Below, piece after piece: positions 10,643 through 58,880 of a stretch of DNA of 64,000 nt. The translations under genes were made by a program, and so were the position numbers. Every line of letters begins with the position of its first letter. Position 1 is the stretch's first letter. Source of the DNA: Somniosus microcephalus. Its lineage: Eukaryota. The DNA lies in contig CM126209.1 in the NCBI GenBank assembly GCA_052327205.1, forward strand, positions 148,490,001-148,554,000, in the 5' to 3' direction. A model generated the notes under the pieces. The model made no database searches. It was not told where the DNA came from and saw only the letters and a list, made by a program, of their open reading frames with translations.

Positions 10643-10862
10643 GTGTCTAGTTAATGATATGGCTATCAGAAACAGATGGAGTATTAATTTTGCATTATTT
10701 GGTTTTTTTACATCATGAAAGCTGTAAAAGTAAGCAGGCTTAAATGATTAATCTTGGTCAATGCAATGTAATGAAACTAACATTACAAACAACTAAAGTT
10801 AATTACTGTAAATGTCCTGGATTTCACAAAGTTAGAATTTATAACCAATGGAAAGCGTAATA
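10643..10862 (+). repeat. Left arm (part 1) of long-range inverted repeat
   Basis: Reverse complement of ~58658-58880. Perfect 40-nt match between 10715-10754 and 58764-58803. Confidence 0.92.
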
Positions 10863-10867
10863 CTAGA

Positions 10868-11727
10868 AAAAAAGAAAGACTTGCATTTCTATAGCGCCTT
10901 TCACAAACTCATGATGTCCCAAACTGCTTTACAGTCAATTAAGTACTTTTGAAGTGCAGTCGCTGTTGTAATGTAGGAAACAGCAGCCAATTTGCGCACA
11001 ACAAGCTTCCCCAAACAGCAATATGACAACGACCAGATAATTTTTTTTTGTGATGTTGATTGAGGGACAAATATTGGCCAGGAAACTGGGGATAACTCCC
11101 CTGCTCTTCTTTGAAATAGTGTCATGGAATCTTTTACGTCCACCTGAGAAAGCAGACAGGGCCTCAGTTTAACATCTGATCTAAAAGACAGCACCTCCGA
11201 CAGTGCAGCACTCCCTCAGTACTGCACTGGAGTGTCAGCCTAGATTTTTGTGCTCAAGTCTCTGGGGTGGGACTTGAACCCACAACCTTCTGACTCAGCG
11301 GCGAGAGTTTTTAAAAATTCATTCATGGGATATGGGCGTCATTGGCAAGGCCAACATTTATTGATCATCCCTAATTGCCCTTGAGAAGGTGGTGGCGAGC
11401 TGCCTTCTTCAACCGCTGCAGTTCGTGAGGTGAAGGTACTCCCACAGTGCTGTTAGAGAGGGAGTTCCAGGATTTTGACCCAGCGACGATAAAGGAACGG
11501 CAATATATTTCCAAGTCAGGATGGTGTGTGACTTGGAGGGGAACTTGCAGGTAGTGGTGCTCCCATGCGCCTACTGCCCCTGTCCTAGGCAGTAGAGGTC
11601 TCGAGTTTGGGAGGTGCTGTCAAAGAAGCCTTGATGAGTTGCTGCAGTGCATCTTGTAGATGGTACACACTGCAGCCACGGTACACCGGTAGTGGAGGGA
11701 GTGCCACTCACTGAGCCATGGCTGACA
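10868..11727 (-). mobile_element. tRNA-headed Deu-domain SINE (SacSINE1/AmnSINE-like), interrupted by a LINE fragment
   Basis: Deu core (CCCCTGCTCTTCTT...TCCACCTGAGA..GCAGAC..GGCCTC.GTTTAAC), B-box-like TTGAACCCAC and the tail GCATTT.TATAGCGCCTTT. The head resumes at 11701. Confidence 0.85.
11310..11700 (-). mobile_element. CR1/L2-group LINE 3' end inserted in the SINE
   Basis: Reverse complement of ~33125-33515. Confidence 0.85.
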
Positions 11728-11732
11728 CTCGA

Positions 11733-11888
11733 AAGAGAATAAGTCGTGTCATTTTTCAGTCATTAAACACAACTAGCTTTTCATAACGGAATGACTCAAA
11801 ATTGTTATCGATTCAAAGTGCTGCTTCTGGCCTTGTGCTTACATTTTTTTGGACTGTTTTAATTGCATAATTGTTACACTTGAAAAGC
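11733..11888 (+). repeat. Left arm (part 2) of long-range inverted repeat
   Basis: Reverse complement of 58496-58655. Perfect 30-nt match between 11859-11888 and 58496-58525. Confidence 0.92.
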
Positions 11889-14582
11889 GGCGACTGTAAC
11901 CACCCACCCACACCTAAACCCATCTGCTCTTCAATGTTAAAATTTCCCCCAAACTGTCCCTCCATATGTAAATGTTGTTGTAATAACAAATGTTGGGGGT
12001 CAACAGCTCTTATCTATTGTTTAGTTTACAGAAATAAATCTAATAGTCTGGAATGGCCTGTCCAATTCACCCTGGCACTGGTAGCATGTACATCTGATCC
12101 CCAGTAAAAAAAAAACTGTCATTTATATGATTCCTTAACATATCATCAGGACATCTCAAAGTGCTCTACAACCAGTGAGTTAACTTTGAATTGCAGTCAC
12201 TGTGGTATAAGCATATGTGTCAGCCAATTTGCACACAGCAAGGACCCACAAATAGCAAAGATAATTTTTTTCAGTGCTTTTGGTTTTGGTGGTCTAATAG
12301 GGGTGGGGGTAACCATTTTCTTGATAATTTTTATGTCCATTCCTAAATGTCTACTGGGAAAAGGATAAGGCCTCATGATATTAGTTGTCAATCTGATCAC
12401 TGGCAAGGTCATTTTGGTTCTGGGTTGTCTCCATCCAATTGCTGATAGAGCATTTGTGTAGGGTATAGGTGACCACCTGATAGTGATGTCTCTGATCCCT
12501 AATTCTGTATTTAAAGGCTAGAGCTAGCCTCGTAGTGTGACCATCTGCACCCTGCTTGTTTAGTGCTGTGAGAGATAGGCAGTGGTGTGTCAATCTGATC
12601 TGATTCCTTGTTGTGTAGCAGAGAAAGGGTAGGTGCCTTTAAAGGAATAATATTTCCATACTTGGCATCTACTTATGTAACGCAGAATGAGAACTATTAT
12701 TAACCCATGCTCTAACTTTATGAAGTGATATCACATACATTGAGGATCATGGGTTAAACACTGCTGCCATTTTTAGTTGATTCCTGAAGTTTTAGCATTT
12801 AGACTTTAGCTTTGTGTTCAACTTTAGAGGATCCATATTTTATTGCCTTCAAAACAAGATCTGAATATGCAATATGAATTGGCATAGGCATTATACAATT
12901 ATGGAGCCACACATGATATAGCAGCATACATCTGCTGAGAGACTATTTATTCCTTTGTGCTGCATGTCATTTTAATACGACATTCTCTAGCAATGAACAA
13001 GAAGAAGCATATAAGAGCAGTCAGTAATCTGGCAGGACAATTTCACATGCTCATTAACTATACACTGGTTATTACAAATACAGGATCATAATACTGTGTA
13101 GTCAAATAAAGTGTGTGTTTCTTGGAACAGGAAATGTATCTATATTTCTGCAGTATCCTAGTACAGCATTGTTCCTGTTGTCTCACACTACATTCACATT
13201 CCACAAGTTTAGTGTCAGTGTGATGTTGAAAATTAGGACTAAACTTGGAGTGTGGGTCAGGTGTTAAAAACTGACTCTAAAGTGTAGCAGAGAGAGATTA
13301 CTTTCTTCAAGGAGTCTAACTCTGCTTTACTCCAGTGCCAAGTCAGGCCCAGACACCGCATTCAAGCTGCATTATAGGAAGAAAATCTGGGTTTTTTTAT
13401 CCGCTGTCAAAGGACATTCGTCATGCTCAAGGAATTTTGTTTAAACCATCTGTAGTGCTCATTGTGACTTGTCAACAGGGGTTTAATTTCTCATCCATAC
13501 CTAACTAGCACAGTACTGTTAGGTATACTCCCAATGCTGAATTCTGGAGTTTCTTTGAATATATTTGCAAAGTAAGAGCTAAATTCTCCAGATTTTTTGC
13601 AGCTTCCACCCCAGCAAATACATCTTTTCTCACCTTTTAATCTGCATTTGTGGTATACGTTTGGGAGTATTCTGCAAACAGTTGCCAGAAACATTTTCAC
13701 ATTGTAACATTATTTGGAAGGCCATTTGAGGGAGGGGATCAACATAATTTGTCAGAATTGGCCAAAGTCCTATTCTAAAGCATGCGCAGCTTCAACTGGA
13801 TCATCACCAGCCTGTGACTGGATATGAAATTCAAGGAAGGAGTTGCCTGACCATATGACAGGTATATTTTTTCCTCAATCTTTTTCCCATCTCATGTAGA
13901 TACTGATTCATGTTGGGATACGGTTTCAGAAGAGCCCACCTCCCACTGGTACTTACCCACATGGGCCTTTTTTTCATGTATGAGCCTGGACAGTGTCTAC
14001 AGGCTGTTCAGTGGTGAACAATCTCACGGCTGAGTCTGATCCTGTCCTCATCTGACGTCCAGACACATGTTCTTGCACAGGTCAGTAAGGACAATTGGCA
14101 CCCTGTGATCTTCCATGTGAGATCTTGAGGCAGTTTTAAAGCATGTCTTCAAGTGGAGTACCTGGCAGAGGCACTCGAAGAAGGAGCATGGCATTGCAAG
14201 GAGGCAGGAAAGAAGACACAATTTTAATGAGACCTATAGACACTCCTGGATAACGTGCACCAGGACAAAGACTGCTGGTCTGGTGGGATATGATGTTTGA
14301 GAATGGTTACTGAGTTGAATAAGTTGGAATTTATGTGGGTGTGGTGGGGGTCGGGGGTGTGTGGAAGAAGTAATAACAGTGACGACAAAGGTAGACCATG
14401 TTAAACAGATGAGAAAACTTAATTGATAAGTTGAGCTCTGATGCCCCTTGTAGCTGTCACTGAGGGCTCCTTCCCAGAAAGCTCCATATCCAGGCCTTTT
14501 AGATGGCAGAGTTGCACAGAAGACATCAAATTACAGCTATGTAGGATACACTCATTGGAACATATTACAAAGCTCCTCGTAT

Positions 14583-15618
14583 CATAGAATCATAGAAATT
14601 TACAGCACAGAAGGAGGCCATTTGGCCCATTGTGTCTGTGCTGGCTAAAAAAGAGCTATCCAGCCTAATCCCACATTCCAGCTCTTGGTCCGTAGCCTCG
14701 TAGGTTACAGCACTTCAAGTGCATATCCAAGAACTTTATAAATGCGATGAGGGTTTCTGCCTCTACCACCCTTTCAGGCAGTGAGTTCCAGACACCCACC
14801 ACCCTCTGGGTGAAAACATTTCTCCTCAACTCCCCTCTAATCCTTCTACCAATTACTTTAAATCTATGCCCCTTGGTTATTGACCTCTCTGCTAAGGGAA
14901 ATAGGTCCTTCCTATCCACTCTATCTAGGCCCCTCATAATTTTATACACCTCAATTAAATCTCCCCTCGACCTCCTCTGCTCCAAAGAAAACAACCCCAG
15001 CCTATCCAATCTTTTCTCATAGCTAAAATTCTCCAGTTCTGGCAACATCCTCATAAATCTCCTCTGTACCTTTTCTAGTGTAATCACACCTTTCTTGTAA
15101 TGTGGTGACCAGAACTGTACGCAGTACTCTAGCTGTGGCCTAACTAGTGATTTATACAGGTCTAGCACAATGTCTCTCCTCTTATATTCTATGCCTCGGC
15201 TAATAAAGGAGTGTATCCCGTATGCCTCCTTAGCCGCCTTATCTACCTGCTACCTTCAGGGATCTGTGGACATGAAATCCAAGGTCCCTCTGTTTCTCTA
15301 TGCTTCTCAGTATCCTATCATTTATTGTGTATTCCCTCGCCTTGTTAGCCCTCCCCAAATGCATTACCTTATACTTCTTCGGATTGAATTCCATTTGCCA
15401 CTTTTCTGCCCACCTGACCAGTCCATTGATATCTTCCTGCAGTCTATAGCTTGCCTTCTCACAAAAATTGGCAGTGTGGCTGATAGTATCATCTGCAAAC
15501 TTCTTAATCATGCCCCCTACATTGAAGTCTAAATCATTGATATATACCACAAGAAGTAGAGGATCTAGTACTGAGCCCTGTGGAACCCCACTGGATATAG
15601 CATTCCAGTCACAAAACA
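14583..15618 (-). mobile_element. CR1 LINE 3' part
   Basis: SGVPQGSVL.PLLL..YINDL, KFADDT, LVRPQLEYCVQFWSP and a (TTCTATGA) tail. Confidence 0.9.
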
Positions 15619-15619
15619 T

Positions 15620-16921: not shown

Positions 16922-17386
16922 CAGAGTCGCAGAAATACCATATGCCATCATACCCGCCATACCTTTCTATCAATTTTTTCACCAGGTAATCATCCAACTT
17001 GCTCTTGAATTTGATGAAACAGTCAGCGGCTACTGCATCTCTTGGAAGTCCATTTCATACTTTGACTGTGCATTGCATAAATGTGTGCACGCTTCCAGTG
17101 CACCATATTGAGGCCTCAGTAGTCCAAGTAGCGCACGAAAATGAGTACTGCGTGGGCCAATTTCTTGGTCAGAATCTCAGAAGTTTGCTGATAACACAAA
17201 AGTAGGAGATTTGGCAAACAGTGAGGAGAAGTGTAAAAGACTTCAGCAAAACATATAGATAGAGGAATGAGAAGACGCGCGAGATAATACATTCTGGAAG
17301 GAAAAACTAGGAATGGGAGTATATGTTAACTGAGAATACGCGGAAGAGCGTAGAAAAACAGAGAGGCCTAGAGGTTCAAAAACATT

Positions 17387-18031
17387 GGAGGTAATTTTAA
17401 CCCCCATGATTGGGTGGGTGTGGGTCGTATGAGTAGTTAAAATTTAAAAAAATTAAAACCTGACCTCAACCCACTTTGAACCTGCCCGGTTTTAATAGAG
17501 GTGGGACGTGGAGGGGAGGGATGGATGGGTGACCAATCCGCTTTAAGGAGGCTGTGTGCCTCCATATTAACAAGCTTTTTATTTTTAACCCATTTCGGCC
17601 AGGTTTCCTGGGCCTCCGGAAACCTGGCAGGTAAAAGGAGGCGAGAAGGGCTGTATCCATAAGGGAAGTGCCTTTACAGCACTGCTTGTGGATCAGGAGA
17701 AGTAGGAGTGTTTCCCAACGGCCCAACAAGCTTACCCGCTTCCAACTCCGCGATTGCCGACTAACCCCCACCCTGGGATTTTCCCCCTTGACTACCATCT
17801 TGTTTCCCCCCACGCGATCTCTTCCCCCATGATCTCGCACTGCTTCCCTACCTGCTCTCTGCTTGGCTGCAGGCTTTCCTGTCCAGCACGCAGCCAACCT
17901 GTTGCTCAGGTTGCCTGTCCAGCGGGAATCTTGTAGAAAAAATTTAAAAGACGTCCTACAGTTAAAAACTCGTACTTCTGGGTTTCCCGTCCACAACTGC
18001 TCCCCCCGCCCCACTCTGAATGCGTGGCCCC
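17387..18031. mobile_element. Harbinger-type MITE
   Basis: ATT[GGAGGTAATTTTAA...GCGTGGCCCC]ATA within CR1. Similar to 2594-3379. Confidence 0.7.
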
Positions 18032-21238: not shown

Positions 21239-21281
21239 CTATCTTTGACTAATTTCATTTATAGATACAACACAATTATTT

Positions 21282-23308: not shown

Positions 23309-23509
23309 CTGTTCCTTTCCCACTAAGCCATCGACTGACCATGAAGGAAGTATTTGATTGTGATGGCAAGCCACGTGTTGATCATTTGAAGGCTCATCTC
23401 ACCAAGGAGGGGAGGGTAGAAGAAACTGTAGCACTTCGAATTATTAATGAAGGAGCTTCCATTCTTCGCCAAGAAAAAACAATGTTGGATATAGAAGCTC
23501 CTGTGACAG
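23309..23509 (+). CDS. PPP3CA: Calcineurin A (PP2B catalytic subunit, alpha-like) coding exon 2
   Basis: (A)[66 protein letters not shown]. Polypyrimidine tract with a TAG acceptor ending at 23308 and a GT donor at 23510. 201 bp, phase 1/1. SHRLT, KAHL, GASIL and APVT favour the alpha paralogue over beta or gamma. Confidence 0.93.
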
Positions 23510-23657
23510 GTAGAATTGCATAGATTTATAATTATATTGAGTTATTCTACCAAATAAAAATGCAGATTTTACTTGCAAATATATTAAGTTAAGAAATGAA
23601 CTGTGACTATACATTGCTAGGTCTACTATACAAGCCACATTAGACATTAGCAGAAGA

Positions 23658-23813
23658 CATTGGGAATTTCCTCAGAGCTGCTCCCACTCCGCCACTGTAA
23701 CTTTGCAGAAAGTGCAGCAGAAACTCCAATTACCTGCGTAAACGGGGTTTCTCCTGCATATCCGGCAAAATTCTGACAGTGGAGCAGGAGGAGCTCTGAG
23801 GAAATTCCTGACA
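23658..23813. mobile_element. Short hairpin MITE
   Basis: Perfect 17-bp inverted repeat GGAATTTCCTCAGAGCT (23663-23679 / 23792-23808). Family mates at 25544 and 34240. Confidence 0.8.
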
Positions 23814-24374
23814 CTTGAAATTTAAACTGTAGAATGCATTCTGTTTTCAAAAATTTAAATAAGTTTCTAGAAAGCCATTTACCTCAGAAGAGTTGAGCTC
23901 AAAACTTGATCAAGGAGAATGGTTGGGAGTCATATATCACTGCCAAGTGTTTTCAGGTAATATATAACTATTTCAATGCAGGAGTTTACAAGAAAACTGC
24001 AATTGCACAAATTTAAAATCTGAGAGTTATGGATTGAATAATGCAATGTCTTGTAAAGTAAAAACGTTGGCCTGATGATGGGGCTAAGGCTGCTTCATTG
24101 AGTCAGTTGCAGGATTACCTTGTGATTCCATTTATCCACATTGTACCTCATCATTAGTTCATTTTGTAATTGATCTCGAGTACTGGCAAGTGTCTTGCAT
24201 TTTATTTATCAACTTTTTTTCTTTCATATCATTCTCAAATCAGACTTTTTTATTTGTTTCTAAGAGCAATGTAATTAACATAATTTAGAGAAATGTAAAC
24301 CATACTTTGTAGCCAGCCGAAGGAGTATGCAACTCTGGGTCTCCGAGAAAGGTTTAAGCAATGCGAGAGTGAGC

Positions 24375-24530
24375 AGATTATCTATTTTTAAGTGATGTTT
24401 GTTGAGGAATAAATATTGGCCAGAACACTGGGGAGAACGCCCCTGCTCTTCTTTGAATAGTGCCATGAGATCTTTTACGTCCACCTGAGAGGGCAGACGG
24501 GGCCTGGGTTTAACATCTCATCCGAAATAC
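24375..24530 (-). mobile_element. DeuSINE core fragment
   Basis: Matches 11035-11190. Confidence 0.8.
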
Positions 24531-25543: not shown

Positions 25544-25700
25544 TGCCAGGAATTTCCTCAGAGCTGTTCCCACTCCGTCGCTGTGACTTCATTGGAATTG
25601 CGATGGAAACCATGGTTACACGCGTAAACGGGGACTTCCACCACACTTCCAACAAAGTTACGGCAGCAGAGCGGGAGCAGCTCCAAGGATATCCCATGGC
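25544..25700. mobile_element. Short hairpin MITE with AAT TSD
   Basis: AAT[TGCCAGGAATTTCCTCAGAGCT...GGATATCCCATGGC]AAT. Confidence 0.75.
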
Positions 25701-32494: not shown

Positions 32495-33520
32495 ATCAAT
32501 GCAACACAGCCCCAGGACATCGCTGCAGGAGTTCCTCAGGACAGTGTCCTAGGCCCAACCATCTTCAGCTGCTTTATCAATGATCTTCCCTCCAACATAA
32601 GGTCAGAAATGGGGATGTTCACCGATGACTGCACAGTGTTCAGTGCCATTCGCAAATTCTCAGATAATGAAGCAGTCCATGCCCGCATGCAACAAGACCT
32701 GGATGACATACAGGCTTGGGCTGCTAAGTGGCAGGTAACATTCACGCCACAGAAGTGCCAGGCAATGACTATCTCCAACAAGCGAGAGTCTAAACACCAC
32801 CCCTTGACATTCAACAGCATTACCATCGCCGAATCCCCCACCATCAACATCCTGGGGGTCACCATTGACTAGAAACTTAACTGGACCAGCCACATAAATA
32901 CTATGGCAACAAGAGCAGGTCAGAGGCTCGGTATTCTGTGACGAGTGTCTCACCTCCTGACTCCCCAAAGCCTTTCCACCATCTACAAGGCACAAGTAAG
33001 GAGTGTGATGGAATACTCTTCACTTGCCTGGATGAGTGCAGCTCCAACAACACTCAAGAAGCTCGACATCATCCAGGACAAAGTAGCCCACTTGATTGGC
33101 ACCCCATCCACCACCTTAAAGATTCACTCCCTCCACCACTGGCATACCGTGGCTGCAGTGTGTACCATCTACAAGATGCACTGCAGCAACGCACCAAATC
33201 TTCTTCGGCAGCACCTCCCAAACCCGCGACCTCTACCATCTAGAAGGACAAGGGCAGTAGGCGCATGGGAACACCACTACCTCCAAGTTCCCCTCCAAGT
33301 CACACACCATCCTGACTTAGAAGTATATTGCCGATCCTTCATCGTCACTGGGTCAAAATCCTGGAACTCCCTCCCTAACAGCACTGTGTGAGTACCTTCA
33401 TCACACGGACTGCAGTGGTTCAAGAATGCGGCTCACCACCACCTGCTCAAGGGCAATTAGGGATGGGCAATAATTGCTGGCCTTGCCAGCGACGCCCACA
33501 TCTCATGAATGAATTAAAAA
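32495..33520 (+). mobile_element. CR1/L2-group LINE 3' part
   Basis: GVPQDSVLGPTIFSCFINDL, MFTDDCT, YKAQVRSVMEY, WNSLP and an (ATGA) tail. Confidence 0.88.
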
Positions 33521-33580
33521 AATCTATGTTGATGATGTCGAATATTTTATTTGTCTGGTTATAGTGCAAATGGATATATT

Positions 33581-41451: not shown

Positions 41452-43707
41452 CGTTCTGGAGGGGGAGGGTGAACAACCAGTTGTCGTGGTGCATATAGGT
41501 ACCAACGATATAGGTAAAAAACAGGATGAGGTCCTAAAAGCTGAATATAGGGAGTTAGGAGGTAAATTAAAAAATAGAACCTCAAAGGCAGTAATCTCAG
41601 GATTGCTACTAGTGCCAAGTGCTAGTCAGAGTAGAAATAGAAGAATATTTCAGATGAATACGTGGCTAGACGATTGGTGCAAGGGGGAGGGATTCAAATT
41701 CCTGGGACATTGGAACCAGTTCTGGGGGAGGTGGGACCAGTAAAAACTGGATGGTTTGCACCTGGGCAGGACCGGGACCGATGTCCTAGGGGGAGTGTTT
41801 GCTAGTGCTGTTGGGGAGGGTTTAAACTAAAATGACAGGGGGCTGGGAACCTGTGCAGGGAGACAGAGGAAAGAGAAGCAAGGATAGACCCAAAAGACAG
41901 GAAGGAGAAAAGCAAACGTGGAAGTCACAGAACTCAAGGGTGTAAATCAAACATGGCCGCAGTAAACAATAATTCGAAAAGGTCTAAGAGTGTTAAATAA
42001 ACAAGCCTGAAGGTTCTGTGTCTTAATGCAAGGAGCATTCTTAATAAGGTGGATGAATTAGCTGCGCAAATAGATGTAAATGGATATGATATAATTGGGA
42101 TTATGGAGACATGGCTCCAGGGTAACCAAGGCTGGGAATTCAACATCCAGGGGTATTCAATATGCAGGAAGGATAGGCAAAAGGGAAAAGGCGGTGGGGT
42201 AACATTGCTGGTTAAAGAGGAGATTAACACAATAGTAAGGAAGGATATTAGCTCTGATGATGTGGAATCTGTATGGGTAGAGCTGAGAAATACCATGGGG
42301 CAGAAAACGTTAGTGGGAGTTGTATACAGACCCCCAAACAGTAATGCTGAGGTTGGGGATGGCATTAAAAGGGAAATTAGAGATGCGTGCAATAAGGGCA
42401 CAGCAGTTATCATGGGTGACTTTAATCTACATATAGATTGGCCTAACCAAGTTAGTAATAATACTGTGGAAGAGGAATTCCTAGAGTGTATACGGGATGG
42501 TTTCCTGGACCAATATGTCGAGGGGATCTCATTGAAACTTATAAAATTCTGACAGGACTGGACAGACTAGATGCAGGAAGGATGTTCCCGATGGTCGGGG
42601 AGTCCAGAACCAGGGGTCACCATCTAAGGATAAGGGGTAAGCCATTTAGGACAGAAATGAGGAGGAATTTCTTCACCCAGAGAGTGAAGAACCTGTGGAA
42701 TTCTCTACCACAGAAGGCAGTAGAGGCCTCTACCACAGAAGGCAGTAGAGGCCAATTCATTAAATATATTCAAGAAGGAGTTGGATATATTTCTTAAGGC
42801 TAAAGGGATCAAGGGGTATGGGGAGAAAGCAGGGACAGGGTACTGAATTCGGATGATCAGCCATGATCGCATTGAATGGCGGAGCAGGCTCAAGGGGCCA
42901 AATGGCCTACTCCTGCTCCTATCTTCTATGTTTCTATGAACCAACTAGAAATCAGGCCATCTTAGAATGGGTATTATGTAATGAGAAAGGATTAATTAGC
43001 AATCTTGTTGTGCGAGGCCCCTTGGGGAGGAGCGATCATAATATGATAGAATTCTTCATTAAGATGGAGGGTGAAGTAGTTGATTCAGAGACTTAGGTAC
43101 TGAATTTAAATAAAGGAAAGTACGATGGTATGAGGCGCAAGTTGGCTAGGATGGATTGGGGAATGTTACTTAAAGGGTTGATGGTGAATAGGCAATGGCA
43201 AACATTTAAAGATCACATGGATAAACTACAGAATTTGTTCATCCCTGTTTGGCATAAAAATAAAACAAAAAAGGCGACTCAACATTGGCTAACAAGGGAA
43301 ATTAGGGATAGCATAAGATCCAAGGAGAGGACATATAAATTGGCCAGAAAAAGCGCAAACCTGAGGATCGGGAGCAGTTTAGGATTCAGCAAAGGAGGAC
43401 AAAGGGATTAATTAAGAGGGGGGAAATAGAGTATGAGAGTAAGCTTGCAGGGAACATAAAAACTGACTGTAAAAGCTTCTATAGATATGTCAAGAGAAAA
43501 AGATTGGTAAAGTCAAGCGTAGGTGCCTTGCAGTCAGAATCAGGGGAACTTATAATGGGGAACAAAGACATGGCAGACCAATTAAACACATACTTTGGTT
43601 CTGTCTTCACAAAGGAGGACACAAATAAACTCCCAGAGATGTCGGGGAACATAGGGTCTAATGAGAGGGAGGAACTGAATGAAATCAGTATTTGTAGGGA
43701 AATGGTG
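41452..43707 (+). mobile_element. CR1 LINE 5' part: ORF1 SGNH-esterase and ORF2 AP-endonuclease
   Basis: VVVVHIGTNDIG...DGLHL in ORF1; IGIMETWL, RKDR..KGGGV, GVVYRPP, MGDFN and SDHN in ORF2. Confidence 0.9.
42521..42937 (+). mobile_element. Nested young CR1 3' end
   Basis: Interrupts the host at QYVE|EPTR. GDLIETYKILTGLDRL motif and an internal 25-bp tandem duplication at 42704-42752. Confidence 0.9.
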
Positions 43708-44768: not shown

Positions 44769-44942
44769 AGATTATCTGGTCATTATCACATTGCTGTTTG
44801 TAGGAACTTGCTGTGCGCAAATTGGCTGCCACATTTCCCACATTACAACAGTGACTACACTCCAAAAGTACTTCATTGGCTGTAAAGTGCTTTGAGATGT
44901 CCAGTGGTTGTGAAAGGCTATATAAATGCAAGTATTTCTTTT
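44769..44942 (+). mobile_element. DeuSINE 3' part
   Basis: Reverse complement of 10870-11040. Confidence 0.8.
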
Positions 44943-46000
44943 TACCTTGTCAACTATTTTCTATCTTTGGAAATGCCACTGGCAGTCTGAGGCCAGTGAG
45001 CAACGTTACGTGCATGTGTTTGCGTATGCATCTGTGGAGCTGTGCCTCACTTGAGTGACCCAACGCAGATTGTGTAACTGTGGCTACCTTCTCACACTGT
45101 TGTTTCATTGCTATATTGCTGGACTGCTGTTGTTTCTACAGTTGGTGTTATATGGCAAATAAAATTTCAGAAACATGAACAATCGTATTTGCCGTACACT
45201 AAATGAAAATTTGTTGATGTTTTCTTCAGTCCTAACCTGTGGAAGGAAGCTCATAGAGTGGGTGTTGTAGATCTGGCTTTCAGCTATAGAAGTATTTTAC
45301 TTGTCTTGTCACTAGCAGGAAGTGCAAAATATTTAAGACAAAAATGAAAAAGCACACTATTACAGACAAAGGCTGCATCACCACTCCAGTTTTGCAAAAG
45401 GAGCCACAAACAGACTTTAGGCCCCCTATTTGCAAATGCTAAGGGCCTAACTCCTGTTTCAGGCGCAGGCCTTGGACAGCTCTTTTTTTGCCTTTACCAA
45501 TATGGCGTGTGGCGCACTTCCTGCGTGAAATGCGCTCTGCGCCACCTGCCATATTAGGCAATTTGGCGTCCATTTCACACCTGTAAAACGGGCGTGACAT
45601 CAATCAAGTTCTAGGCCACTATCTCTTTTAATCTTCTTTAGTATGCATTCTCGTCCCCCCAACCCCATCTCAGATTCTCTTGATCTGATCGGATCTCCGT
45701 TGTCCTGATTAGGTCTACTCCAGCCACATTCTTTTTTATTTCAGAAGGCTTTTTTTCCTGTTAAATTCATGGCATAACAACATTGTGCAGCCAGAGACTA
45801 CTGTAATGAGGACATGTGCTCGCAAATTTCATACTCTTGATTGCTAATTAGCCTAGATAAATTGCACTTGGGTTCAAACAGGCTCGTCACCGATTTCCCA
45901 TGGCCACAATTCAGCAAGTGATGGTTAATGGTATTTGAACTTGTGTGTATAAAAGGCAGAATTCCAGGAAATTATACTGTTTATAAAGTTTCATCAGTGA

Positions 46001-49575: not shown

Positions 49576-50742
49576 CATAGAAAACATAGAAAACATAGAA
49601 GATAGGAGCAGGAGTAGGCCATTCGGCCCCTCGAGCCTGCTCCGCCATTCAATAAGATCAGGGCTGATCATCCAAATTCAGTACCCTGTTCCTGCCTTCT
49701 CTCCATATCCCTTGATCCCTTTAGCCTTAAGAAATATATCCAACTCCTTCTTGAATATATTTAATGAATTGGCCTCTACTGCCTTCTTTGGCAGAGAATT
49801 CCACAGGTTCACCACTCTCTGGGTGAAGAAATTCCTCCTCATCTCTGTCCTAAATGGCTTACCCCTTATCCTTAGACTGTGACCCCTGGTTCTGGACTCC
49901 CTGACCATCGGGAACATCCTTTCAGCATTTAGTCTGTCTAGTCCTGTTAGAATTTTATAAGTTTCGATGAGATCCCCTCTCATTCTTCTAAACTCCAGCG
50001 AGTACAAGCCCAATCGACCCAATCTCTCCTCATACGTCATTCCTGCCATCCCAGGTATCAGCCTGGTGAATCTTCGCTGCACTCCTTCCATGGCAAGAAC
50101 ATCCTTTCTCAGATAAGGCAACCAAAACTGCACACAATACTCAAGATGTGGTCTCACCAAGGCCCTGTACAACTGCAGCAAGACATCCTTGTTCCTGTAC
50201 TCAAACCCTCTCGCTACGAAGGCCAACATACCATTTGCCTTCTTAACCGCCTGCTGCACCTGCATGCTTACTTTCAGCGACTGGTGCACAAGGATGCCCA
50301 GGTCTCGTTGCACTTCCCCTTCTCCCAATCTATTGCCATTCAGATAATAATCTGCCTTCCTGTTTTTGGCACCAAAGTGGATAACCTCGCATTTATCCAC
50401 GTTATATTGCATCTGCCATGCTTCCGCCCAATCACTCAACCTGTCCAAATCATACTGGAGTTTCTCGGCATCCTCCTCACAGCACACACGCCCACCCAGC
50501 TTTGTGTCGTCTGCAAACTTGGAGATTTTACATCTAGCTCCCTTGTCCAGATCATTAATATATGTTGTGAATAGCTGGGGTCCAAGGACCGATCCCTGCG
50601 GTACCCCACTAGTCACTGCCTGCCACTCGGAAAAGGAGCCATTTATTCCAACTCTTTGCTTTCTGTCTGCCAACCAGTTCTCTATCCAAGTCAATACCTT
50701 GCCCCCAGTCCCATGTGCCTTAATTTTACACGCTAATCTCTT
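49576..50742 (-). mobile_element. Young 5'-truncated CR1 LINE with an uninterrupted 338-aa RT C-terminus (49678-50694), nested in an older + strand CR1
   Basis: SGVPQGSVLGPQLF...KFADDTK...RNFFTQRVVNLWNSLP and a (TTTTCTATG)n tail. Confidence 0.93.
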
Positions 50743-51525
50743 GAAGGTGGCAAGACAAGTTGAGAAGGCTTTTAATAAAACATGGGATCCTTGGCTTTAT
50801 TAATAGAGGAATAGAGTACAAAAGCAATGGAGTTATGCAAAACCTTTACAAAACCCCGAATAGCCCTCAGCTGGATTATTGTGTTGAATTCTGGGCACCA
50901 CACTTTAGGAAGAATGTCAAGGCCTTGGAGAGGGTCTAGAAGAGATTTATTAGAATGGTACCAGGAATGAGGGACTTCAGTTAAGAGGAGATTTGATAGA
51001 GGTGTTCAAAATCATGAACGGTTTTACTCGAGTAAATAAGGAGAAACTGTTTCCAGTGGCAGAAGGGTCAGTAACCAGAGGACACAGATTTAAGGTGATT
51101 GGCAAAAAAACCAGAGGACATTTTGTTCTTCTGCATGCCCCTTCCAAAAGCCTTTCTGTATAATATACCTTCCCAGCTGAATGGACAAACTTGAAGTTTA
51201 TTTCTAGACCTCTGTCAATATTGTTGTGTCCAGGTTTGGCCGTTGGATTTCATTCCCTCCTTTTAATGAAGTATTTGGCTTGCCCAAGGAAAGATGCTTG
51301 AGAATAGAAAATCTGCATGTAAGGAATTACAGGGCAGTATACTAGACTTCTAACACGTTGCAGCAAAAGCTGCACTTCATCTACTCTGCCACTAAGTAAA
51401 CAGTAAATTCCAGTATAGCATTTTTTCAGTGGAACCAAGGTATTACGCATATACAAAAATGACAGAGGGACAAATTACTGCATACTTGACTGGAATAAAT
51501 AGAACTGGCAATAAACAGACTCATT

Positions 51526-52239
51526 GGCCCCGATATTTACCTGGGTGGGATTTCCAAATGGGGGGAGGAGTTCTGGTCCCCGAATGTGCATTTCTGTTTA
51601 ACAGGTTTCCCGCCCGGAAGCCAGCCTGATTGACAGGCTTGGCTCAATGTCAGGCAGGGAATGCTGCAGAAGAGGCTGCAACCCAGGAACAGGTAGGTTT
51701 CCTGCTACTCGGGAAGAGATTGAGAGATCACGGGGTGGGTACTGCGTGGTTTGGAGGGTCGGAGGGTGATTGCGGAGAGTCGGATAGAGATCGGGAGCAG
51801 AGATAGGGGTTCAAGGGCTGGCGATGGTGATCACGTGTGGGGCGTGGGGTCGGCGACCGTAGGGGGGGGGGGTCCAATCGGGGAAGCAGGTTAGCTCGGG
51901 GGGGCAGCACTCATGCTCCCTCTGGTTCACAAGCAGTACTGGTAAGCATTTACCTCTTCCACGCAGTTGTCCTCACCTCCCTTTAATCCTGGGTTTTCCG
52001 AGGCCTGGACAGCGTTAAAGCTGGAAGAGTGATAAAATATGAGGCACAAAGACTCATTAAAATATTTAAATGAGCGACCACCTCCTGTGAGCGGGTTGGT
52101 CGTCCGCTCTCTACCCCACCTCCGTTAAAACTGAAAGTGGATAGGTTCGAGGTGGGTTGGGTTCGGGTTTGAGATTTAAAAATGTTTTACATCCCACCTG
52201 ATCCAAACCCACCTGTTTCAGGGGGTTAAAATGACCCCC
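51526..52239. mobile_element. Harbinger-type MITE, ATT TSD
   Basis: AGACTC-ATT[GGCCCCGATATTTA...TTAAAATGACCCCC]ATT-ATATCT. Confidence 0.82.
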
Positions 52240-52267
52240 ATTATATCTCGTAGTGAAATAAGGATAT

Positions 52268-52397: not shown

Positions 52398-52653
52398 AAG
52401 AATATAATTCCTCTCATAAATACCTGATATCAAGTATTTAGAAATAATCATGATTTCAAAATATTGGACTAAGAACATATTGGCCTAGAAATTCAGTTGC
52501 GTTCGCCAGCCGTTAGCGCCATAAGAGGAGTAGATCTCGAGCGCTAGGCACTTAGTGGCCGGGTGCAGAACGATCTGCGCCTACGCCCAACTTCAGTAGA
52601 CATTTAGCGCCGGCGCAAAGTGTTTGCGCGCGCTCAGCTGCGCGCGCAACTTA

Positions 52654-52834
52654 TGACGTCATTTCGTCGTGCAACGCCGTTTGTGCGCCCCAAACCGGAA
52701 CTTCAGTGGCGCCCGCCCAATGTGGGCGTGGCGCTGTTAAGAACTGTGAAGTGGAACGCAGCAGAGGCCCTGCGGGCCTCGGGGTGCACTAATTAAAGGG
52801 CACTTAGACTGAACTATAAAGGGCAGCCATTTTG
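52654..52834 (+). promoter_or_regulatory. Putative transposase promoter
   Basis: CRE TGACGTCA at 52654-52661, ETS-like CCGGAA at ~52695, CCAAT at ~52717, TATAAA at 52815-52820 and YY1-like GCCATTTT at 52826-52833. Confidence 0.5.
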
Positions 52835-52981
52835 CTGCAATGACTTTAGTGCAACGGATTTCTGGACAGAGACCAAGGAAGAGACCTTACTGATTTGGGC
52901 CAACATAGGAGAGGTATTTTTGGCTTCTGGCCAGAGCTTGGAAATTTGACTCATTGTGATTTCACTGTTTGCAAGTATATT

Positions 52982-54124
52982 ATGGGGGCTGCATGGGGTT
53001 CCAACCCTCAGTTCCAGCATTATATGCGAAGGGCTCGCAGACGCTGTGTGAGAGGGGCAGCCATGCCTAGACGCAGAGGGGCCATCAGGCGTCGGCAACG
53101 TAGGCCTTACCCACTCAGGGTATACCGCCAGCAGGTGTCCTATCTCACCATGACTGCCGCGCAGTGTGTTAAGAGGCTGCGCTTCAGAAGGGAGGTGGTT
53201 GCAGAGATCTGCCAGCTGCTTCACAGAGATCTGCGTCCACAGCTGATGTGCAGGACGTCTCTGTCGGTGGAAGTGAAGGTCACGGTGGCTCTGAACTTTT
53301 ATGCAAGCGGCTCCTTCCAAGCCGCTGCTGGGGACATAGCTAACATCTCCCAGTTCGCCGTGCATCGCTGCATCCGGCAGGTCACCGATGCCCTTTTCAC
53401 AAGGAGACACCAATTCATCTCCTTCCCCATGACCCTAGAGAGGCAGGAGCAGCGTGCAGTCGGATTTGCAAGGATTGCCGACTTCCCCATGGTGCAGGGC
53501 GCCATTGACTGCACGCATGTGGCTTTGCGGGCACCTATCGACAATGCCGAGGATTACCGCAACCGGAAGGGCTACCATTCCCTCAATGTACAGCTGGTGT
53601 GTGACCACAGGCAGCGCATCCTAGCTGTCAATGCCCGCTTTCCAGGCAGCAGCCACGATGCATTTATCCTGCGCCAGACTACTGTGGCTGACATGTTCCA
53701 GGCACAGCCTCCCCCAAGAGGATGGCTTATCGGGGACAAAGGCTATCCTTTGTGTACATGGCTCATGACCCCGCTCCGCGCACCCAGGACCTCTGCTGAG
53801 GAGGCATACAACGAAAGCCATCAAGCCACAAGGAACATCATAGAGCAAACGATTGGCGTCCTCAAGCAACGGTTCCGCTGCCTGGATCGCTCCGGTGGAT
53901 CTCTGCAGTATTCGCCGGATAGAGTCTCCCAGTTCGTCGTCGTTTGCTGCATGCTGCACAACCTGGCTATCCGCAGGACTCAGGCACTGCTACCTCACGT
54001 TGGACCACCACCTCAGGAGGATGAGCAGGAGGACCATGAGGAGGAGGAGGAGGAGTACCAGCCCAGGAGGGAGCCACAAGGTCCAAGGGCCGTCCGTCGG
54101 CGGCTTATTGAACGACACTTCTAG
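52982..54124 (+). CDS. Harbinger DDE transposase (HARBI1-like), 380 aa
   Basis: GAIDCTH, NRKGYHSLNVQLVCD, PGSSHD, GDKGYP, YNESH..TRNIIEQTIGVLKQRF and CCMLHN. The ATG at 52982 is homologous to the ATG at 701 in the deleted copy. Confidence 0.95.
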   Translation: MGAAWGSNPQFQHYMRRARRRCVRGAAMPRRRGAIRRRQRRPYPLRVYRQQVSYLTMTAAQCVKRLRFRREVVAEICQLLHRDLRPQLMCRTSLSVEVKVTVALNFYASGSFQAAAGDIANISQFAVHRCIRQVTDALFTRRHQFISFPMTLERQEQRAVGFARIADFPMVQGAIDCTHVALRAPIDNAEDYRNRKGYHSLNVQLVCDHRQRILAVNARFPGSSHDAFILRQTTVADMFQAQPPPRGWLIGDKGYPLCTWLMTPLRAPRTSAEEAYNESHQATRNIIEQTIGVLKQRFRCLDRSGGSLQYSPDRVSQFVVVCCMLHNLAIRRTQALLPHVGPPPQEDEQEDHEEEEEEYQPRREPQGPRAVRRRLIERHF

Positions 54125-54237
54125 GCCACCTGTCAGGGAATGGCTCGTGGCAATGAAGGGACATGAATGCAGCCGCTCCGCAAGCCCTCAGCCGGTTAAC
54201 GCAACAACCACTTCAAACATCACACATGGACAAGCTG

Positions 54238-54257
54238 AATAAAGAAAAAGCTTTATT
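54238..54257. terminator. Paired poly(A) signals for the two convergent genes
   Basis: AATAAA on + at 54238-54243 and TTTATT (AATAAA on -) at 54252-54257. Confidence 0.65.
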
Positions 54258-54379
54258 GAACAAACTCAGGGCCCTTCCCACATGAAACCCAAAAACACAC
54301 AACACCCCCAAAAAACAGTCAAAAACATATCTCACTCCCACAACCTGGGGAGGAATAACAAAACTTGTCCATCCAAATG

Positions 54380-54599
54380 GCCTTCATCCTCGGCCTTACC
54401 AAAAGAACCCCCCCCATAGACAGCACAAGCACCCCCATATAAAAAACATTTGCCTTCATCCTCGGCCTTACCAAAAGAACCCCCCCCATAGACAGCACAA
54501 GCACCCCCATATAAAAAAACATTTGCCTTCATCCTCGGCCTTACCAAAAGAACCCCCCCATAGACAGCACAAGCACCCCCATATAAAAAAACATTTGCC
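54380..54599. repeat. ~72-bp tandem repeat x3 in the Myb-gene 3' UTR
   Basis: CCTTCATCCTCGGCCTTACC starts at 54381, 54453 and 54526. Confidence 0.92.
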
Positions 54600-54607
54600 A
54601 ACACACT

Positions 54608-56163
54608 CTACTTTGTGTGCCGAGAGGGCGAGTCCTTGTCCAGCCTTTTCCGGCCCCTGGCCGACCTGCTGCTCCGCCTCAACCTGGGCCCTGTGGGTGT
54701 TGCAAGGCTGGGGGAAGGCTCCTGAGGGGCACATTGCGTGACGGCAGATGCCCTTGGGGGTCGGCCTAGACGAGCTCTGGCCCTCGAGGGGCCGGCTGCT
54801 GACTGCTGCAGCTGTGGCTGGGCAGCATCAGTCTCTCCAGCAGCTCGTCGCAGCTTTGCTGGGGGAGTGGCAGTGGCGGCTGCAGCAATGGGGGCAAGCT
54901 GGCTGATGCCAGGCACTCGCTGGTCGCCAGAGACACTGGCACTCGGCCGGACTGGCACTGCAGCAAGCGCAGCAATCTGGTGAAGGCCAGACCGCTGTGC
55001 TGCAGCAGCGCGGCGGGTGCCCTGGCGATGCATGCGTGACACAGCGAGTGTGGCAGCAGTGAGTGCCCGTACTGCCCTGGTCTGTGCCCGCATCAGACCA
55101 GCCAGTGACTGCACGGCACCACTGATCAACTGTCCACTCGCTGCCTGTGCTGCCCTGAAGTCGTCCCGACTTGCGTCCTGTGCTGCCCTGAATTCGGCCC
55201 AACTCGCGTCCTGTGATGCCTCGAATTCGGCCCGACTCGCGTCCTGTGATGCCTCGAATTCGGCCCGACTCGCGTCCTGTGATGCCCCGAATTGTGCCCG
55301 ACTCGCGTCCTGTGATGCCCCGAATTGTTCGAGACCCCTGGCCTGTGCTGCCGCGAGTTGTTCAAAACCCCTGGCCTGTGAGGCCCCGAAATCGGACACA
55401 CTATGAGCCAGGGACTCAATGGCCTCAGGCAACCGTGCCACAACCACCATGAACTCGGTGTGCCGACGATCCGAGTCCGCGGACATTTGATCAAGGAGGC
55501 GCACCTCCTGGGCGACGACCGTCTCCGGACTGGAGGCCGGACTCTTCCTCTGGGGAGAAGGCCGCCGAGCTGCCCAACCCTTCCCGCGTGGCTGCATGCC
55601 ACTGGGCCCAGCAACTACACTCCCTTGCAACACTTCCCCCCTCTGGGGAGAAGGCCGCCGAGCTGCCCGACCCTTCCCGCGTGGCTGGACGCCACTGGGC
55701 ACAGGAGCTACACTCCCCTGCAACACTTCCCCCCTCTGGGGAGAAGGCAGCCAAGCTGCCCGACCCTTCCCGCGTGGCTGGACGCCACTGGGCACAGGAG
55801 CTACACTCCCCTGCAACACTTCCCCCCTCTGGGGAGAAGGCAGCCAAGCTGCCCGACCCTTCCCGCGTGGCTGGACGCCACTGGGCACAGGAGCTACGCT
55901 CCCCTGCAACACTTCCCCCCTCTGGGGAGAAGGCAGCCGAGCTGCCCGACCCTTCCCGCATGGCTGGACGCCACTGGGCACAGGGGCTACACCCCCCTGC
56001 AACACTTCCCCCTGCCTGTCCTCCAGGGAAGACGTGTCCCCTCCATTGCCATCCCCTGGCGCGGATGAGGGTTCCCCCGATGTGCCGCCTTCCTCTTGCT
56101 CCTCCTCGTCCTCCTCTTCCGAGGGACTGACACTCGCAGCTTCAGGGACCTCCTCCTCACCAG
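54608..56163 (-). CDS. Harbinger Myb/SANT-like partner protein, exon 3
   Basis: ttcctgctttcag acceptor, phase 1, in frame with the 465-aa ORF. Acidic tract, repeats and a basic C-terminus. Spliced CDS 237+163+1556 = 1956 nt (651 aa). Confidence 0.88.
55143..55390. repeat. 33-bp coding tandem repeat (~7 units, ASQDASRAEFE)
   Basis: CGACTCGCGTCCTGTGATGCC recurs every 33 bp. Confidence 0.9.
55547..56011. repeat. 93-bp coding tandem repeat x5 (31 aa)
   Basis: TGGGGAGAAG at 55551, 55644, 55737, 55830 and 55923. Confidence 0.95.
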
Positions 56164-56322
56164 CTGAAAGCAGGAAGGCACAAGAGTAGCTTTAGAGTGA
56201 GGACAGGGCGTCAGCGAGGGAGGCATGAGTGGTGGCATTCTGCGCATTGGTCGGACAGTGGCAAAGGATGTAGATCTGAAGCGCAAGGGGAACGAGAGAG
56301 GTCCAAACGGTCATGTCCTTAC

Positions 56323-56485
56323 CATTGGGGCCCAGCACAGGGTCGGCATCTCCAATTGCAACGGAGCCAATCACCCGGGCACCCATGACTCGACCCACGC
56401 GCTCCTCCAGGTCACTGAGCTGCTGGAACTGGGCACGGCCTCCCCCGGTGACAGTCCGGCTCTTCAGATTCTGGGCCAGCTTGGC
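56323..56485 (-). CDS. Harbinger Myb/SANT-like partner protein, exon 2
   Basis: tctttctcttgcag-type acceptor|AKLAQNLKSRTVTGGG...LSDLEERV...|GTAAGG. TGGG..L..EE is typical of these proteins. Confidence 0.88.
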
Positions 56486-56716
56486 CTGCAAGAGAAAGGA
56501 CGGCCTCTAAGTACAGTGTGGTGCCCTGTTGTTGTGTGCACTGCCTCCCATGGTCGAATAGCTTGGCCAGTGTGTAAAGTGCAGAAAGTGCAATTGATGT
56601 TCATGCCAGTGCCATAGCTGCTGGATGAAGGCTGGCCATTAGGCCTTTGAGGTCCCTTTGCCCATAATGTGAGGTGCACATGCAAGGATGAGGAGGACAC
56701 TGGAAAGGGTACTCAC

Positions 56717-56953
56717 CCTGACAATCCGAGTGAGGTCGTTAAACTTTTTCCGGCATTGGACACCAGTCCTGGGGACATCGCTGTTGGCTGTGACCCTCTG
56801 GGCGATTTCCCTCCAGGCTCTCCTGTACACCCTCTTGGGAGGCTTCTTGCCACTGTCCGGGAACAAGATATGGCTTCTCTTCTCCAAAGCCCTAACCAGC
56901 ACCTTTAAATCATGGGCAGAGAAGCGCTGCGCTCGCTCACGGGCCCTCTGCAT
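56717..56953 (-). CDS. Harbinger Myb/SANT-like (trihelix) partner protein, exon 1
   Basis: MQRARERAQRFSAHDLKVLV...LF...AWREIAQRV...RTGVQCRKKFNDL...|GTGAGT. Confidence 0.92.
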
Positions 56954-57360
56954 CCTTCCTGGCGCTATTTCTCTCCAGCAGCAGTGTTTAGGCCTAGCTG
57001 GAGGGCTGCAGTATCCAGGGCGTGGCAGCAGACCAAGTCGACCCTTCCCCCTTTAAGAGCTGGCCGGCACCAGGGTGTCTGCTGTCAATCAAAACATGAC
57101 CGCACCTGCGCTGCGCCCGGCCTCGGCGGTATCAGTCTGCACCGCCGGCTTAGCGCCTAAAGATAGCCGTGCAACGCCAGTTTTAGCGCTCGAGCAAACT
57201 CCTTGGCCAAAGCTACTGAATATCGGCGAAGTGGCCTCCACTTTCCGGCGGGCGCAAACATTAGCGGCCGCCCGACTTTACCGCCCCAAAAGTGGCTATA
57301 CTGAATTTCTAGGCCATTAGATATAATCCAGTAGCAATTAGAGGGTATTGCTGAAATACT

Positions 57361-58134
57361 GGGGTAGAAATTAATTTCTGCTGCTCAGCTGGTACGAACT
57401 GTTCCCTGCGCCGATCAGGTAGGCCTGAGGACTAATGGATATTGGGCCTCAGACCTCATTTTAATAAGTCTGGCAAGCTGCCAAAGCCTATCACTCATCC
57501 CCAGGCAGTTCACCGGTGGGGCGGAGGTCAATTTCGGGCCACTGCAACGCAAGCAGCGGCTCTCAGTTAAGTGCTGGGGGGGGAGGGGAAGAAGAGTAGG
57601 GGGCAATCACCAGACTCTTGCTTCTTCTGGCTCCACATGACCGTTTGGAAGAAAAAAAATGAAAAGCTTACCCTTTTAGTGGCAGCCGCTTTCTAAAACA
57701 CATCTACTCTTGGAAAAGCTGAGTGGCACACGATTGCGCCTGCTCCCCTCAGGGTAACCCAATTTCAGGAAAGGGGTCCTGATACAGGTGTTAGGTCCCT
57801 CATTAGCATATGCAAGTGGCCTAACGCCTGTTTGAGGCTGATACAGTCACGCCTCTGGAGTGCCCGAAGCAAAATGGCGGCAGACGTGTTTCTGGTGCTG
57901 TTCGAGCGCGGAAGGTTGTTCCCTTAATGTGGACCTCTGTGCCGCTGCTTTCCACCTGGAAAACGGGCCCAAGGTGATCCAATTTCTAAAAGAAAATACT
58001 GCAGATGCTGGAAATCTGAAATGAAAAACAGAAAATGCTGGAGAAACTCAGCAGGTCAGGCAGCATCTGTAACTTCTTCAAGGTGGGCATTCCTGGAAGA
58101 GAAGTGGCAATGATTTAAATCCAATTTCTACCCC
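57361..58134. mobile_element. Harbinger-type MITE
   Basis: Perfect TIR GGGGTAGAAATT / AATTTCTACCCC with flanks ACT / ATT. Confidence 0.82.
57989..58118 (-). mobile_element. 130-bp Penelope-terminus insertion with a 12-bp TSD
   Basis: ATCCAATTTCTA at 57977-57988 and 58119-58130. 57989-58070 is the reverse complement of ~52314-52395. Confidence 0.75.
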
Positions 58135-58495
58135 ATTGACTATTAAGCAGTTGCCTATCAATGTCATGTGCGTAGCCAAACTATATCTTTCATCAATATT
58201 AAAGAGCACATTACAGTTGGAACTCTAGGAGTCAGATTTTGGTTCTCTGAAGGAGAACCAGAATATTAAACCAGGATATTAGTTTAGGAGGGTGGTAATT
58301 TTTAACCTGCAGTCATTAACATAGGAAACTCCTCTTTAAGATGATAAAATAGTTTGAATTGTATACAGAGTTTGGATAGCTGCATCGCTACCACATAGCT
58401 TATGCCTGCAATTATATAAAGGGAGAGTTATACAAAACTCTTGCCAAAATGATCCCCCCACGTTTGTTGAGTCATCTGTGTAGGATGATGCTCCT

Positions 58496-58880
58496 GCTTT
58501 TCAAGTGTAACAATTATGCAATTAACACAGTCCAAAAAAAACAATGTAAGCATAAGACCAGAAGCAGCACTCTGAATCAATAACAATTTTGAGTCACTCC
58601 ATTATGAAGAGCTAGTTGTGTTTAATGATTGCAAAATGACACTAATTATTCTCTGGTCTTACTCTTTCCATTAGTTACAAAGCCTAACTTTGTAAAATCT
58701 AGGACATTTACAGTAATTAATTTTAGTTGTTGTAATACTATTTTCATTACATTGCAGTGACCGAGATTAATCATTTAAGCCTGCTTACTTTTACAGCTTT
58801 CATAATGTAAAAAAAATCAACAAATAATACATTAATATTCCATCTGTTTTTAAAAGCCACATCAAACATTAAATAGACAT
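58496..58880 (-). repeat. Right arm of long-range inverted repeat (uninterrupted)
   Basis: The reverse complement is collinear with 10643-10862 joined to 11733-11888. Confidence 0.92.

Follow-up and report, generated by a model that had tools for sequence, protein, structure and literature searches.

Two-copy inverted duplications that do not derive from transposons have close counterparts in long inverted repeats, in short paired duplications of vertebrate introns, and in the inverted repeats of mouse Sry. Here, we describe a pair of ~385-base inverted arms in a 64,000-nucleotide stretch of the Somniosus microcephalus genome (contig CM126209.1, positions 148,490,001 to 148,554,000, forward strand; hereafter, the window), in which the arms lie in the two introns flanking a coding exon of a calcineurin A gene. 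The doublet belongs to this known kind, being a locus-specific inverted duplication that is real and old. Compared with the vertebrate intronic inverted duplications, the arm pair is older, more widely spaced, split by nested insertions, and traced in three species.

Templated sequence insertions of two classes are distinguished in PMC5110952: class 1 insertions carry a target-site duplication of at least 5 bases and a poly(A) tract; class 2 insertions have no target-site duplication and no poly(A), and show junction microhomology, a small deletion, or untemplated bases. Templated insertions at induced breaks measure 73-414 bases in that account. The arms resemble class 2 insertions in being copied unique sequence a few hundred bases long, in having neither duplication nor tail, and in their length of 385 bases, which falls within 73-414. 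They differ in that class 2 insertions are young and polymorphic, so that the empty site is known, and often come from a distant source, whereas the arm pair is fixed, ~10% diverged, and local, with junctions that are unreadable without the ancestral state. Class 1 was considered and rejected, as inspection by eye reveals neither a target-site duplication of at least 5 bases nor a poly(A) tract at the arms.

Inverted intronic matches also have described roles in RNA processing. The C. elegans reverse complementary matches reported in 10.1101/2021.02.28.433292 resemble the arms in that a non-transposon match is present in two long introns flanking one exon and is kept across related species. 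There, however, both the circle and the skipped product are observed and disappear when the match is deleted, and the match that is conserved measures 13 nucleotides (nt), whereas the arms are 385 nt long, lie 11 and 35 kb from the exon, and are known from DNA alone. [quoted passage not shown] The arms share with PCCRs a non-repeat intronic complementarity within one gene and a predicted energy far below -15 kcal/mol. They differ in being 30 times longer, in being 46.6 kb apart (more than 10 kb), and in a conservation that is not measurably above that of the flanks in the one related organism compared, and so lie outside the catalogue's sense, exceeding its 10-kb limit without measurable conservation above background. 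PPP3CA is absent from the main text of PMC8052449, the part searched, its data files lying outside the search. Literature searches for PPP3CA exon 2 skipping, circPPP3CA, and circular RNAs or inverted repeats of sharks or elasmobranchs found no description of the element, subscription journals being little covered, and searches for short paired duplications or gene conversion in a like case found none.

Structure of the arm pair

Self-BLAST and local alignment of the 64-kb window reveal a reverse-complement match between 10644-10863 plus 11734-11888 and 58496-58879, confirming the collinear inverted repeat reported in a first-pass annotation of this DNA. The left arm (forward strand, upstream intron) comprises an outer segment, 10644-10863, that is the reverse complement of 58655-58879, and an inner segment, 11734-11888, that is the reverse complement of 58496-58654. 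The right arm (58496-58879, reverse strand, downstream intron) is unbroken, and the inner ends of the arms are 46,607 bases apart. The match is well above chance level: the alignment of 10644-10873 with 58879-58646 contains 200 identities, 26 mismatches, and 12 gap columns (E 6e-67), and the alignment of 11734-11888 with 58654-58496 contains 143 identities, 12 mismatches, and 4 gap columns (E 1e-55). With the tail of an insertion in the left arm trimmed, the arms differ by 36 mismatches in 372 aligned columns, and the Kimura two-parameter distance is 0.116 for the outer segment and 0.082 for the inner segment. The GC content of both arms is 29%. The perfect runs of 40 and 30 nt noted in the first-pass annotation are exact, and are what is expected by chance for the mismatch load of the arms: in 20,000 shuffles of 44 differences over 381 columns, the longest run is at least 40 nt with a probability of 0.23, and the second is at least 30 nt as well with a probability of 0.10.

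The arms themselves carry no recognizable element. No terminal repeat, no target-site duplication (including one of at least 5 bases), and no 3′ tail or poly(A) is seen at either arm, the flanks having been inspected by eye, and there is no coding remnant, the six-frame translation being full of stops; for terminal repeat, tail, and ORF this agrees with the first-pass annotation. The arm sequence has no fold or self-hairpin of its own (z = -0.65), and a search of Rfam returned no family at gathering score in the window and, over the arm, a single hit at the level of chance (E 0.058; 18.9/37.3 bits). The sequences flanking the left and right arms are unrelated to each other (shuffle p 0.32-0.86). 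A 3-base direct repeat lies immediately outside the outer ends of the arms (10641-10643 and 58880-58882), probably by chance.

Copy number and presence in related organisms

Copy number was judged from contigs of public runs aligned to 58150-59150 at a likeness of at least 80%: run X1, used whole (28,509,649 contigs; organism A), ~95% of run X3 (24,033,381 contigs; organism C), ~97% of run X6 (19,478,237 contigs; organism D), and run X11 (organism E). These are four of 16 listed runs; the run search named 15 holders in 7 studies, none of them RNA, which carries no information on expression. Such contigs show presence better than absence, the filter drops some records, and X1, which possibly represents the window's own species or source, is not independent. 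The interval attracted 8 records in A, 7 in C, and 5 in D. In A, the right arm accounts for two of them and the left arm for three, the others being one sharing a 40-base word, one AT-rich 37-base match with 6 mismatches, and one separate flank match; all records in C and D are assignable to either arm or to the flank match. Under a 20-mer seed (the tool's own seed being unstated), 100 copies would be expected to give ~90 seeded hits at 85% identity and ~8 at 70%, and a 385-base copy would contain an exact 20-mer with a probability of 0.24 at 75% identity and 0.08 at 70%. Judged from these contigs, a young or middle-aged dispersed family behind the arms appears unlikely. The first-pass annotation had offered an uncharacterised ancient repeat as one of its readings and had named hundreds of dispersed copies of equal pairwise identity as what would refute its account; no such crowd is seen: every arm record but one short match comes from the two arms, and a repeat at 80% identity or above is unlikely, since three large runs yield almost nothing else. 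A third copy was found in the window neither by BLAST nor by profile, and a metagenome scan with a 25-base arm word gave 0 hits. Summed depth doubles over the arm, and words shared by the arms have the summed depth of the two contigs (65 against 62-63; 14.7 against 14.7); depth is not a copy number here, and the record list decides.

Both arms are present as contigs in A, C, and D. The left arm is only partly covered in C and D, where a gap is no proof of absence; the right arm has orthologous contigs in all three. In E, a single 209-base contig covers part of the right arm (58454-58658), and none covers the left arm, which is not taken as absence. Orthologous contigs differ from the window at 21/578 and 13/361 bases in C and at 18/651 and 14/377 in D, placing the species 3-4% apart. 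Loss of likeness at the left arm's insertion falls at the same loose end, 58654, in X1, X3, and X6; this junction is thus common to A, C, and D, and the duplication and the insertion are older than their split. The window differs from X1, C, and D at 58288 and 58655, as private variants or errors.

Nested insertions and age

The left arm is interrupted by 870 bases that contain a nested 400-base piece, and both have relatives in the window. In particular, a short interspersed element (SINE)-like insert occupies 10864-11303 (tail and body, reverse strand; relatives at 44771-44943 and 24357-24530, 82%) and resumes at 11704-11733 (reverse strand), where its remaining 5′ end forms the junction shared by A, C, and D. 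Between these parts lies a long interspersed element (LINE)-like fragment (11304-11703, reverse strand), which has an 88% inverted match to 33125-33525 on the other side of the exon. The LINE label was assigned by eye, from a reverse-transcriptase-like frame beside that relative; a Pfam search of this frame, 32942-33388, returned no family. The SINE-like insert appears similar to DeuSINE/SacSINE1, and the labels DeuSINE and LINE are presumptive. The first-pass annotation's description of a DeuSINE hit by a LINE thus holds for the arrangement of the insertions and stays provisional for the family names. A metagenome scan with an 18-base word of the SINE found 17 loci, none of which reaches further into it. 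According to PMC5499810, DeuSINE/SacSINE1 elements have a tRNA-derived head, a Deu domain, and an L2-derived tail.

Two rates quoted in PMC5499810 would place the duplication at ~50-310 million years and the species splits at 16-116 million years, to be read as a range only. The rate taken from PMC10587355 is per generation and was not used for dating.

Pairing potential and conservation

The two arm segments have predicted duplex energies of -251.9 and -213.0 kcal/mol. Self-matching sequence makes up 38% of the window, and 30 of its 63 inverted self-matches bracket the exon; 28 of these are not the arms, and 4 of the 28 score above them. The LINE-like fragment in the left arm and its inverted relative (11304-11703 with 33125-33525) are predicted to pair at -674.8 kcal/mol, a pairing both stronger and closer than that of the arms, and 3603-3987 with 42531-42940 at -712.8 kcal/mol. 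Other transposon pairs in the window are also 86-90% identical.

Sense-strand transitions between the arms comprise 9 G-U-compatible and 16 A-C differences (p = 0.23), where the first-pass annotation had estimated an even split. A selected duplex should favour G-U, and the observed split leans, weakly, against RNA pairing. Comparison of D with the window reveals 8-12 substitutions in 385 arm bases and 20-24 in 613 flank bases (4 of the 32 unlisted; Fisher p 0.14 to 1.0), and the arms are not measurably more conserved than the flanks. This comparison is made on D only, as in the main record of C 11 of the 21 differences are unlisted. The arms have also tolerated damage: the 870-base insertion in the left arm and, in the right arm of D, ~12 bases inserted at 58801-58803, beside the best-matched core. 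Evidence for selection on the arms is weak. The first-pass annotation's proposal of an exon-looping cis element finds nothing in its support, given conservation not measurably different from that of the flanks, G-U pairs that are not enriched, and 28 other inverted matches that bracket the same exon.

At 58336-58525, none of the substitutions listed for D (17 of the 18 in that record) occurs, and there is one 1-base deletion; 10 fall in 58150-58335. The former is possibly a conserved stretch at the inner edge of the right arm.

Origin of the arms

We consider the arms to be, probably, an old one-off inverted duplication that has decayed near-neutrally, the plainest option and one absent from the first-pass annotation, whose two readings fared otherwise (the cis element is without support, and the ancient repeat is unlikely). 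Specifically, ~385 bases of unique intronic DNA would have been copied once in inverted orientation, leaving donor and copy as the two arms, probably in a single event and by repair of a break with a nearby patch from the same gene, through template switching or templated insertion. Contigs show that the duplication was fixed before A, C, and D split. The left copy would later have been struck by the SINE and then by the LINE-like piece, transposons would have widened the gap, and the arms would since have diverged at about the rate of the flanks. Repeat-like sequence makes up ~24 of the 46.6 kb between the arms (three blocks assigned by eye), so the arms were probably closer at formation. The direction of copying was sought from a split miniature inverted-repeat transposable element (MITE)-like element next to the left arm: the rest of the element was looked for on the far side of the left arm and was not found. 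The arms can presumably pair in pre-mRNA and may add to editing, rare circles, or skipping as a by-product among many transposon-made pairings. If neutral, the locus offers a dated case, of modest interest, of unique intronic DNA that gained long inverted copies and, in a lineage that evolves slowly, retained them over tens to hundreds of millions of years.

Three hints, each weak, point the same way and weigh against this account: the age of the SINE, sites that have moved toward the partner arm, and a second two-copy match. The SINE is necessarily younger than the duplication, yet its divergence is about twice the per-arm value: relative to its two in-window relatives it has private changes at 15 of 148 sites (10%), compared with ~5% per arm (p = 0.016). 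This test is post hoc and uses three sequences, and the private changes still include subfamily differences, so the 10% figure is an upper bound. The nested LINE has private changes at 12 of 324 sites (3.7%), which fits ~5% per arm (p = 0.83), and pooling the two elements gives p = 0.30. The first-pass annotation's remark that the arm predates both insertions and still matches well is therefore compatible with a neutral clock for the LINE and for the two together, and not for the SINE.

With the partner arm as outgroup, and among the variants listed (40 of 76), the right arm of D equals the partner arm at 58601, 58629, and 58683, where A and C differ, and the right arm of C equals it at 58682 and 58737, where A and D differ. 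The adjacent sites 58682 and 58683 thus have opposite species patterns, and at 58737 both C arms share one base found in neither window arm. Left-arm states in C and D are available at three of the five sites only (58682 and 58683 being missing). Either species tree requires two or three changes toward the partner arm. Neutral simulation of the five-site pattern under 24 settings gives a probability of 0.0008-0.21. The range is 0.03-0.21 for the 9 settings in which D is the outgroup, 0.004-0.038 for the 9 that place C there, and 0.0008-0.021 for the 6 with a star tree or A as outgroup. The comparison of arms and flanks, for its part, is low in power as a sign of neutrality, since the species are just 3-4% apart and 40 of the 76 variants are listed.

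The second two-copy match has a 37-base core at 59067-59103, with 2 mismatches, 190 bases past the right arm; a single partner contig, 2.4-2.7 kb long, is present in each of the three organisms A, C, and D (2417, 2474, and 2715 bases). By eye, likeness continues beyond 59103 for ~30 bases (to 59135) at ~74%. The partner has no hit in the window. At 59075, a site outside the simulation, the orthologue in C also equals the partner. A link between this match and the arms is unproven; should the partner be located upstream within this gene, the block first copied would have been larger and would have decayed unevenly. A protein-like frame nearby (58944-59195, 84 residues) was rejected as coding, having no Pfam family (0 of the 3 flank frames hit Pfam) and no relative among 1.84 billion proteins.

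The arms could instead form a selected long-range RNA duplex, a reading that we regard as unlikely: paired over 46.6 kb in the nascent transcript and maintained in their complementarity by selection, they would loop the 201-nt exon out and adjust back-splicing, skipping in frame, or A-to-I editing. It would make sense of a non-repetitive pair placed in both introns flanking one frame-preserving exon, of the retention of both arms in A, C, and D, of the predicted energies, of the SINE clock discrepancy, and of the sites that moved toward the partner, one of them with an identical third base in the two C arms. To this add the exon's donor, off consensus at +4 to +6 by eye, and the circles and skipping that reverse complementary matches drive in C. 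elegans (10.1101/2021.02.28.433292). G-U pairs are, however, not enriched (9 against 16), the arms are no more conserved than the flanks, the stronger competitors described above are at hand, including the LINE within the left arm itself, the arms lie 11.4 and 35.0 kb off the exon, and skipping would remove ~67 residues where the catalytic domain begins. Moreover, conserved exon-looping pairings are depleted in human genes (PMC8052449), and the one Ppp3ca circle found in print, from rat, uses exons 7-10 (10.1101/2025.10.13.681804). Equally doubtful is the specific form of this reading, in which the duplication was recruited as a 385-base, 47-kb-range RNA duplex, possibly with an outer helix at 59067-59135, whose complementarity selection or conversion would maintain in cartilaginous fish and which would control either a stop-free circle of 201 nt or a calcineurin A form lacking the exon in frame. 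If selected, the arms would be a non-transposon RNA pairing ~30 times the length of a typical conserved complementary region, affecting a core signalling gene over a distance of 47 kb. A functionless duplication whose arms are homogenized now and then by ectopic gene conversion is likewise improbable. Conversion would produce conflicting toward-partner sites in two lineages and opposite patterns at 58682/58683, would leave the arms less diverged than the SINE implies, and needs no G-U bias, consistent with the 9:16 split; on the other side stand the neutral homoplasy that gives the pattern at 0.03-0.21 with D as outgroup (9 settings), the lack of any unusually long perfect tract, and sites that are single and scattered, with left-arm states at 58682 and 58683 not covered in C and D. 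Because the arms are a single locus and present in several species, covariation, conversion, and editing are directly testable here, which is hard with transposon pairs.

Explanations that make the arms repeats fare worse. The arms could belong to an old family of low-copy repeats or conserved elements, as two closely similar members with all remaining copies below ~75% identity, which would suit their sharp ends and AT-richness, the one weak extra X1 match with the second two-copy match nearby, and the ease with which distant copies are missed at 80% likeness (the exact 20-mer chances of 0.24 and 0.08 given above). We hold this to be quite improbable, as by eye no terminal repeats, target-site duplication, or tail mark either arm, and two copies in one gene that are 90% alike, with no other at 80% or above, need a local copying event anyway. 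It is very improbable that the arms are terminal inverted repeats bounding a single giant element, or else scars left by an inversion between staggered breaks: the 3-base direct repeat outside the outer ends (10641-10643, 58880-58882) would fit, but such a match occurs by chance at ~1/64, and an intact host exon with sound splice sites between the arms would hardly be left by a single insertion or inversion. That the arms are two ordinary copies of a high-copy transposon family can nearly be dismissed; the window is repeat-dense (38% self-matching) and holds other transposon pairs at 86-90% identity, but 8, 7, and 5 records were found where ~90 seeded hits are expected for 100 copies at 85%. 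The duplication with near-neutral decay therefore remains the reading that we prefer.

The bracketed calcineurin exon

The exon between the arms (23309-23509, forward strand, 201 nt, AG/GT) encodes a calcineurin A alpha-type peptide and lies 11,420 bases past the left arm and 34,986 bases ahead of the right arm. Its peptide matches calcineurin A alpha in the PDB at 102.6-105.3 bits (full matches) and beta at 93.8 bits, over residues 21-86. The first-pass annotation's "PPP3CA exon 2" is thereby upheld as to the alpha type; the number 2 is inferred from the residue position and the known gene structure. A search of the window for motifs expected of later exons gave nothing convincing, so within the window the arms flank the 23309-23509 exon alone. 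The bracketing itself is no signal, since an exon located 23 kb into a 64-kb window is necessarily bracketed by every pair spaced 47 kb apart within it. Skipping of the exon would keep the frame at a loss of ~67 residues at the catalytic-domain start, and a circle of the exon is predicted to have a stop-free frame.

The 5′ splice site of the exon (23510-23515) is off the usual consensus at +4 to +6 (by eye). Related palindromic elements lie at 23660-23834 and 25545-25700; the first forms a long hairpin, predicted at -88 kcal/mol over 23640-23860, ~150 bases past the exon donor.

Other repeats in the window

A truncated MITE-like element end (11895-11953, forward strand) lies beside the inner end of the left arm. 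It is a weak hit to a profile of four in-window copies (E 0.045), and for each of the four copies 0 of 100 shuffles reach its score. The full family is dispersed, ~370 bases long, with a sub-terminal hairpin, and occurs at 2588-2934, 17380-17737, 51880-52246, and 60796-61071, with shorter remnants elsewhere.

Long open LINE frames at 49681-50796 (reverse transcriptase, 372 residues, E 2e-14) and 42001-42549 (endonuclease, 183 residues, E 2e-10) suggest young copies. A Harbinger-like transposon at 52850-57052 contains a DDE_Tnp_4 nuclease frame on the forward strand (E 3e-39), a Myb/SANT frame on the reverse strand (E 8e-15), and a frame of 527 residues, built of tandem repeats of 93 and 33 bases, that matches no Pfam family; a decayed relative of this transposon is located at 1-1218.

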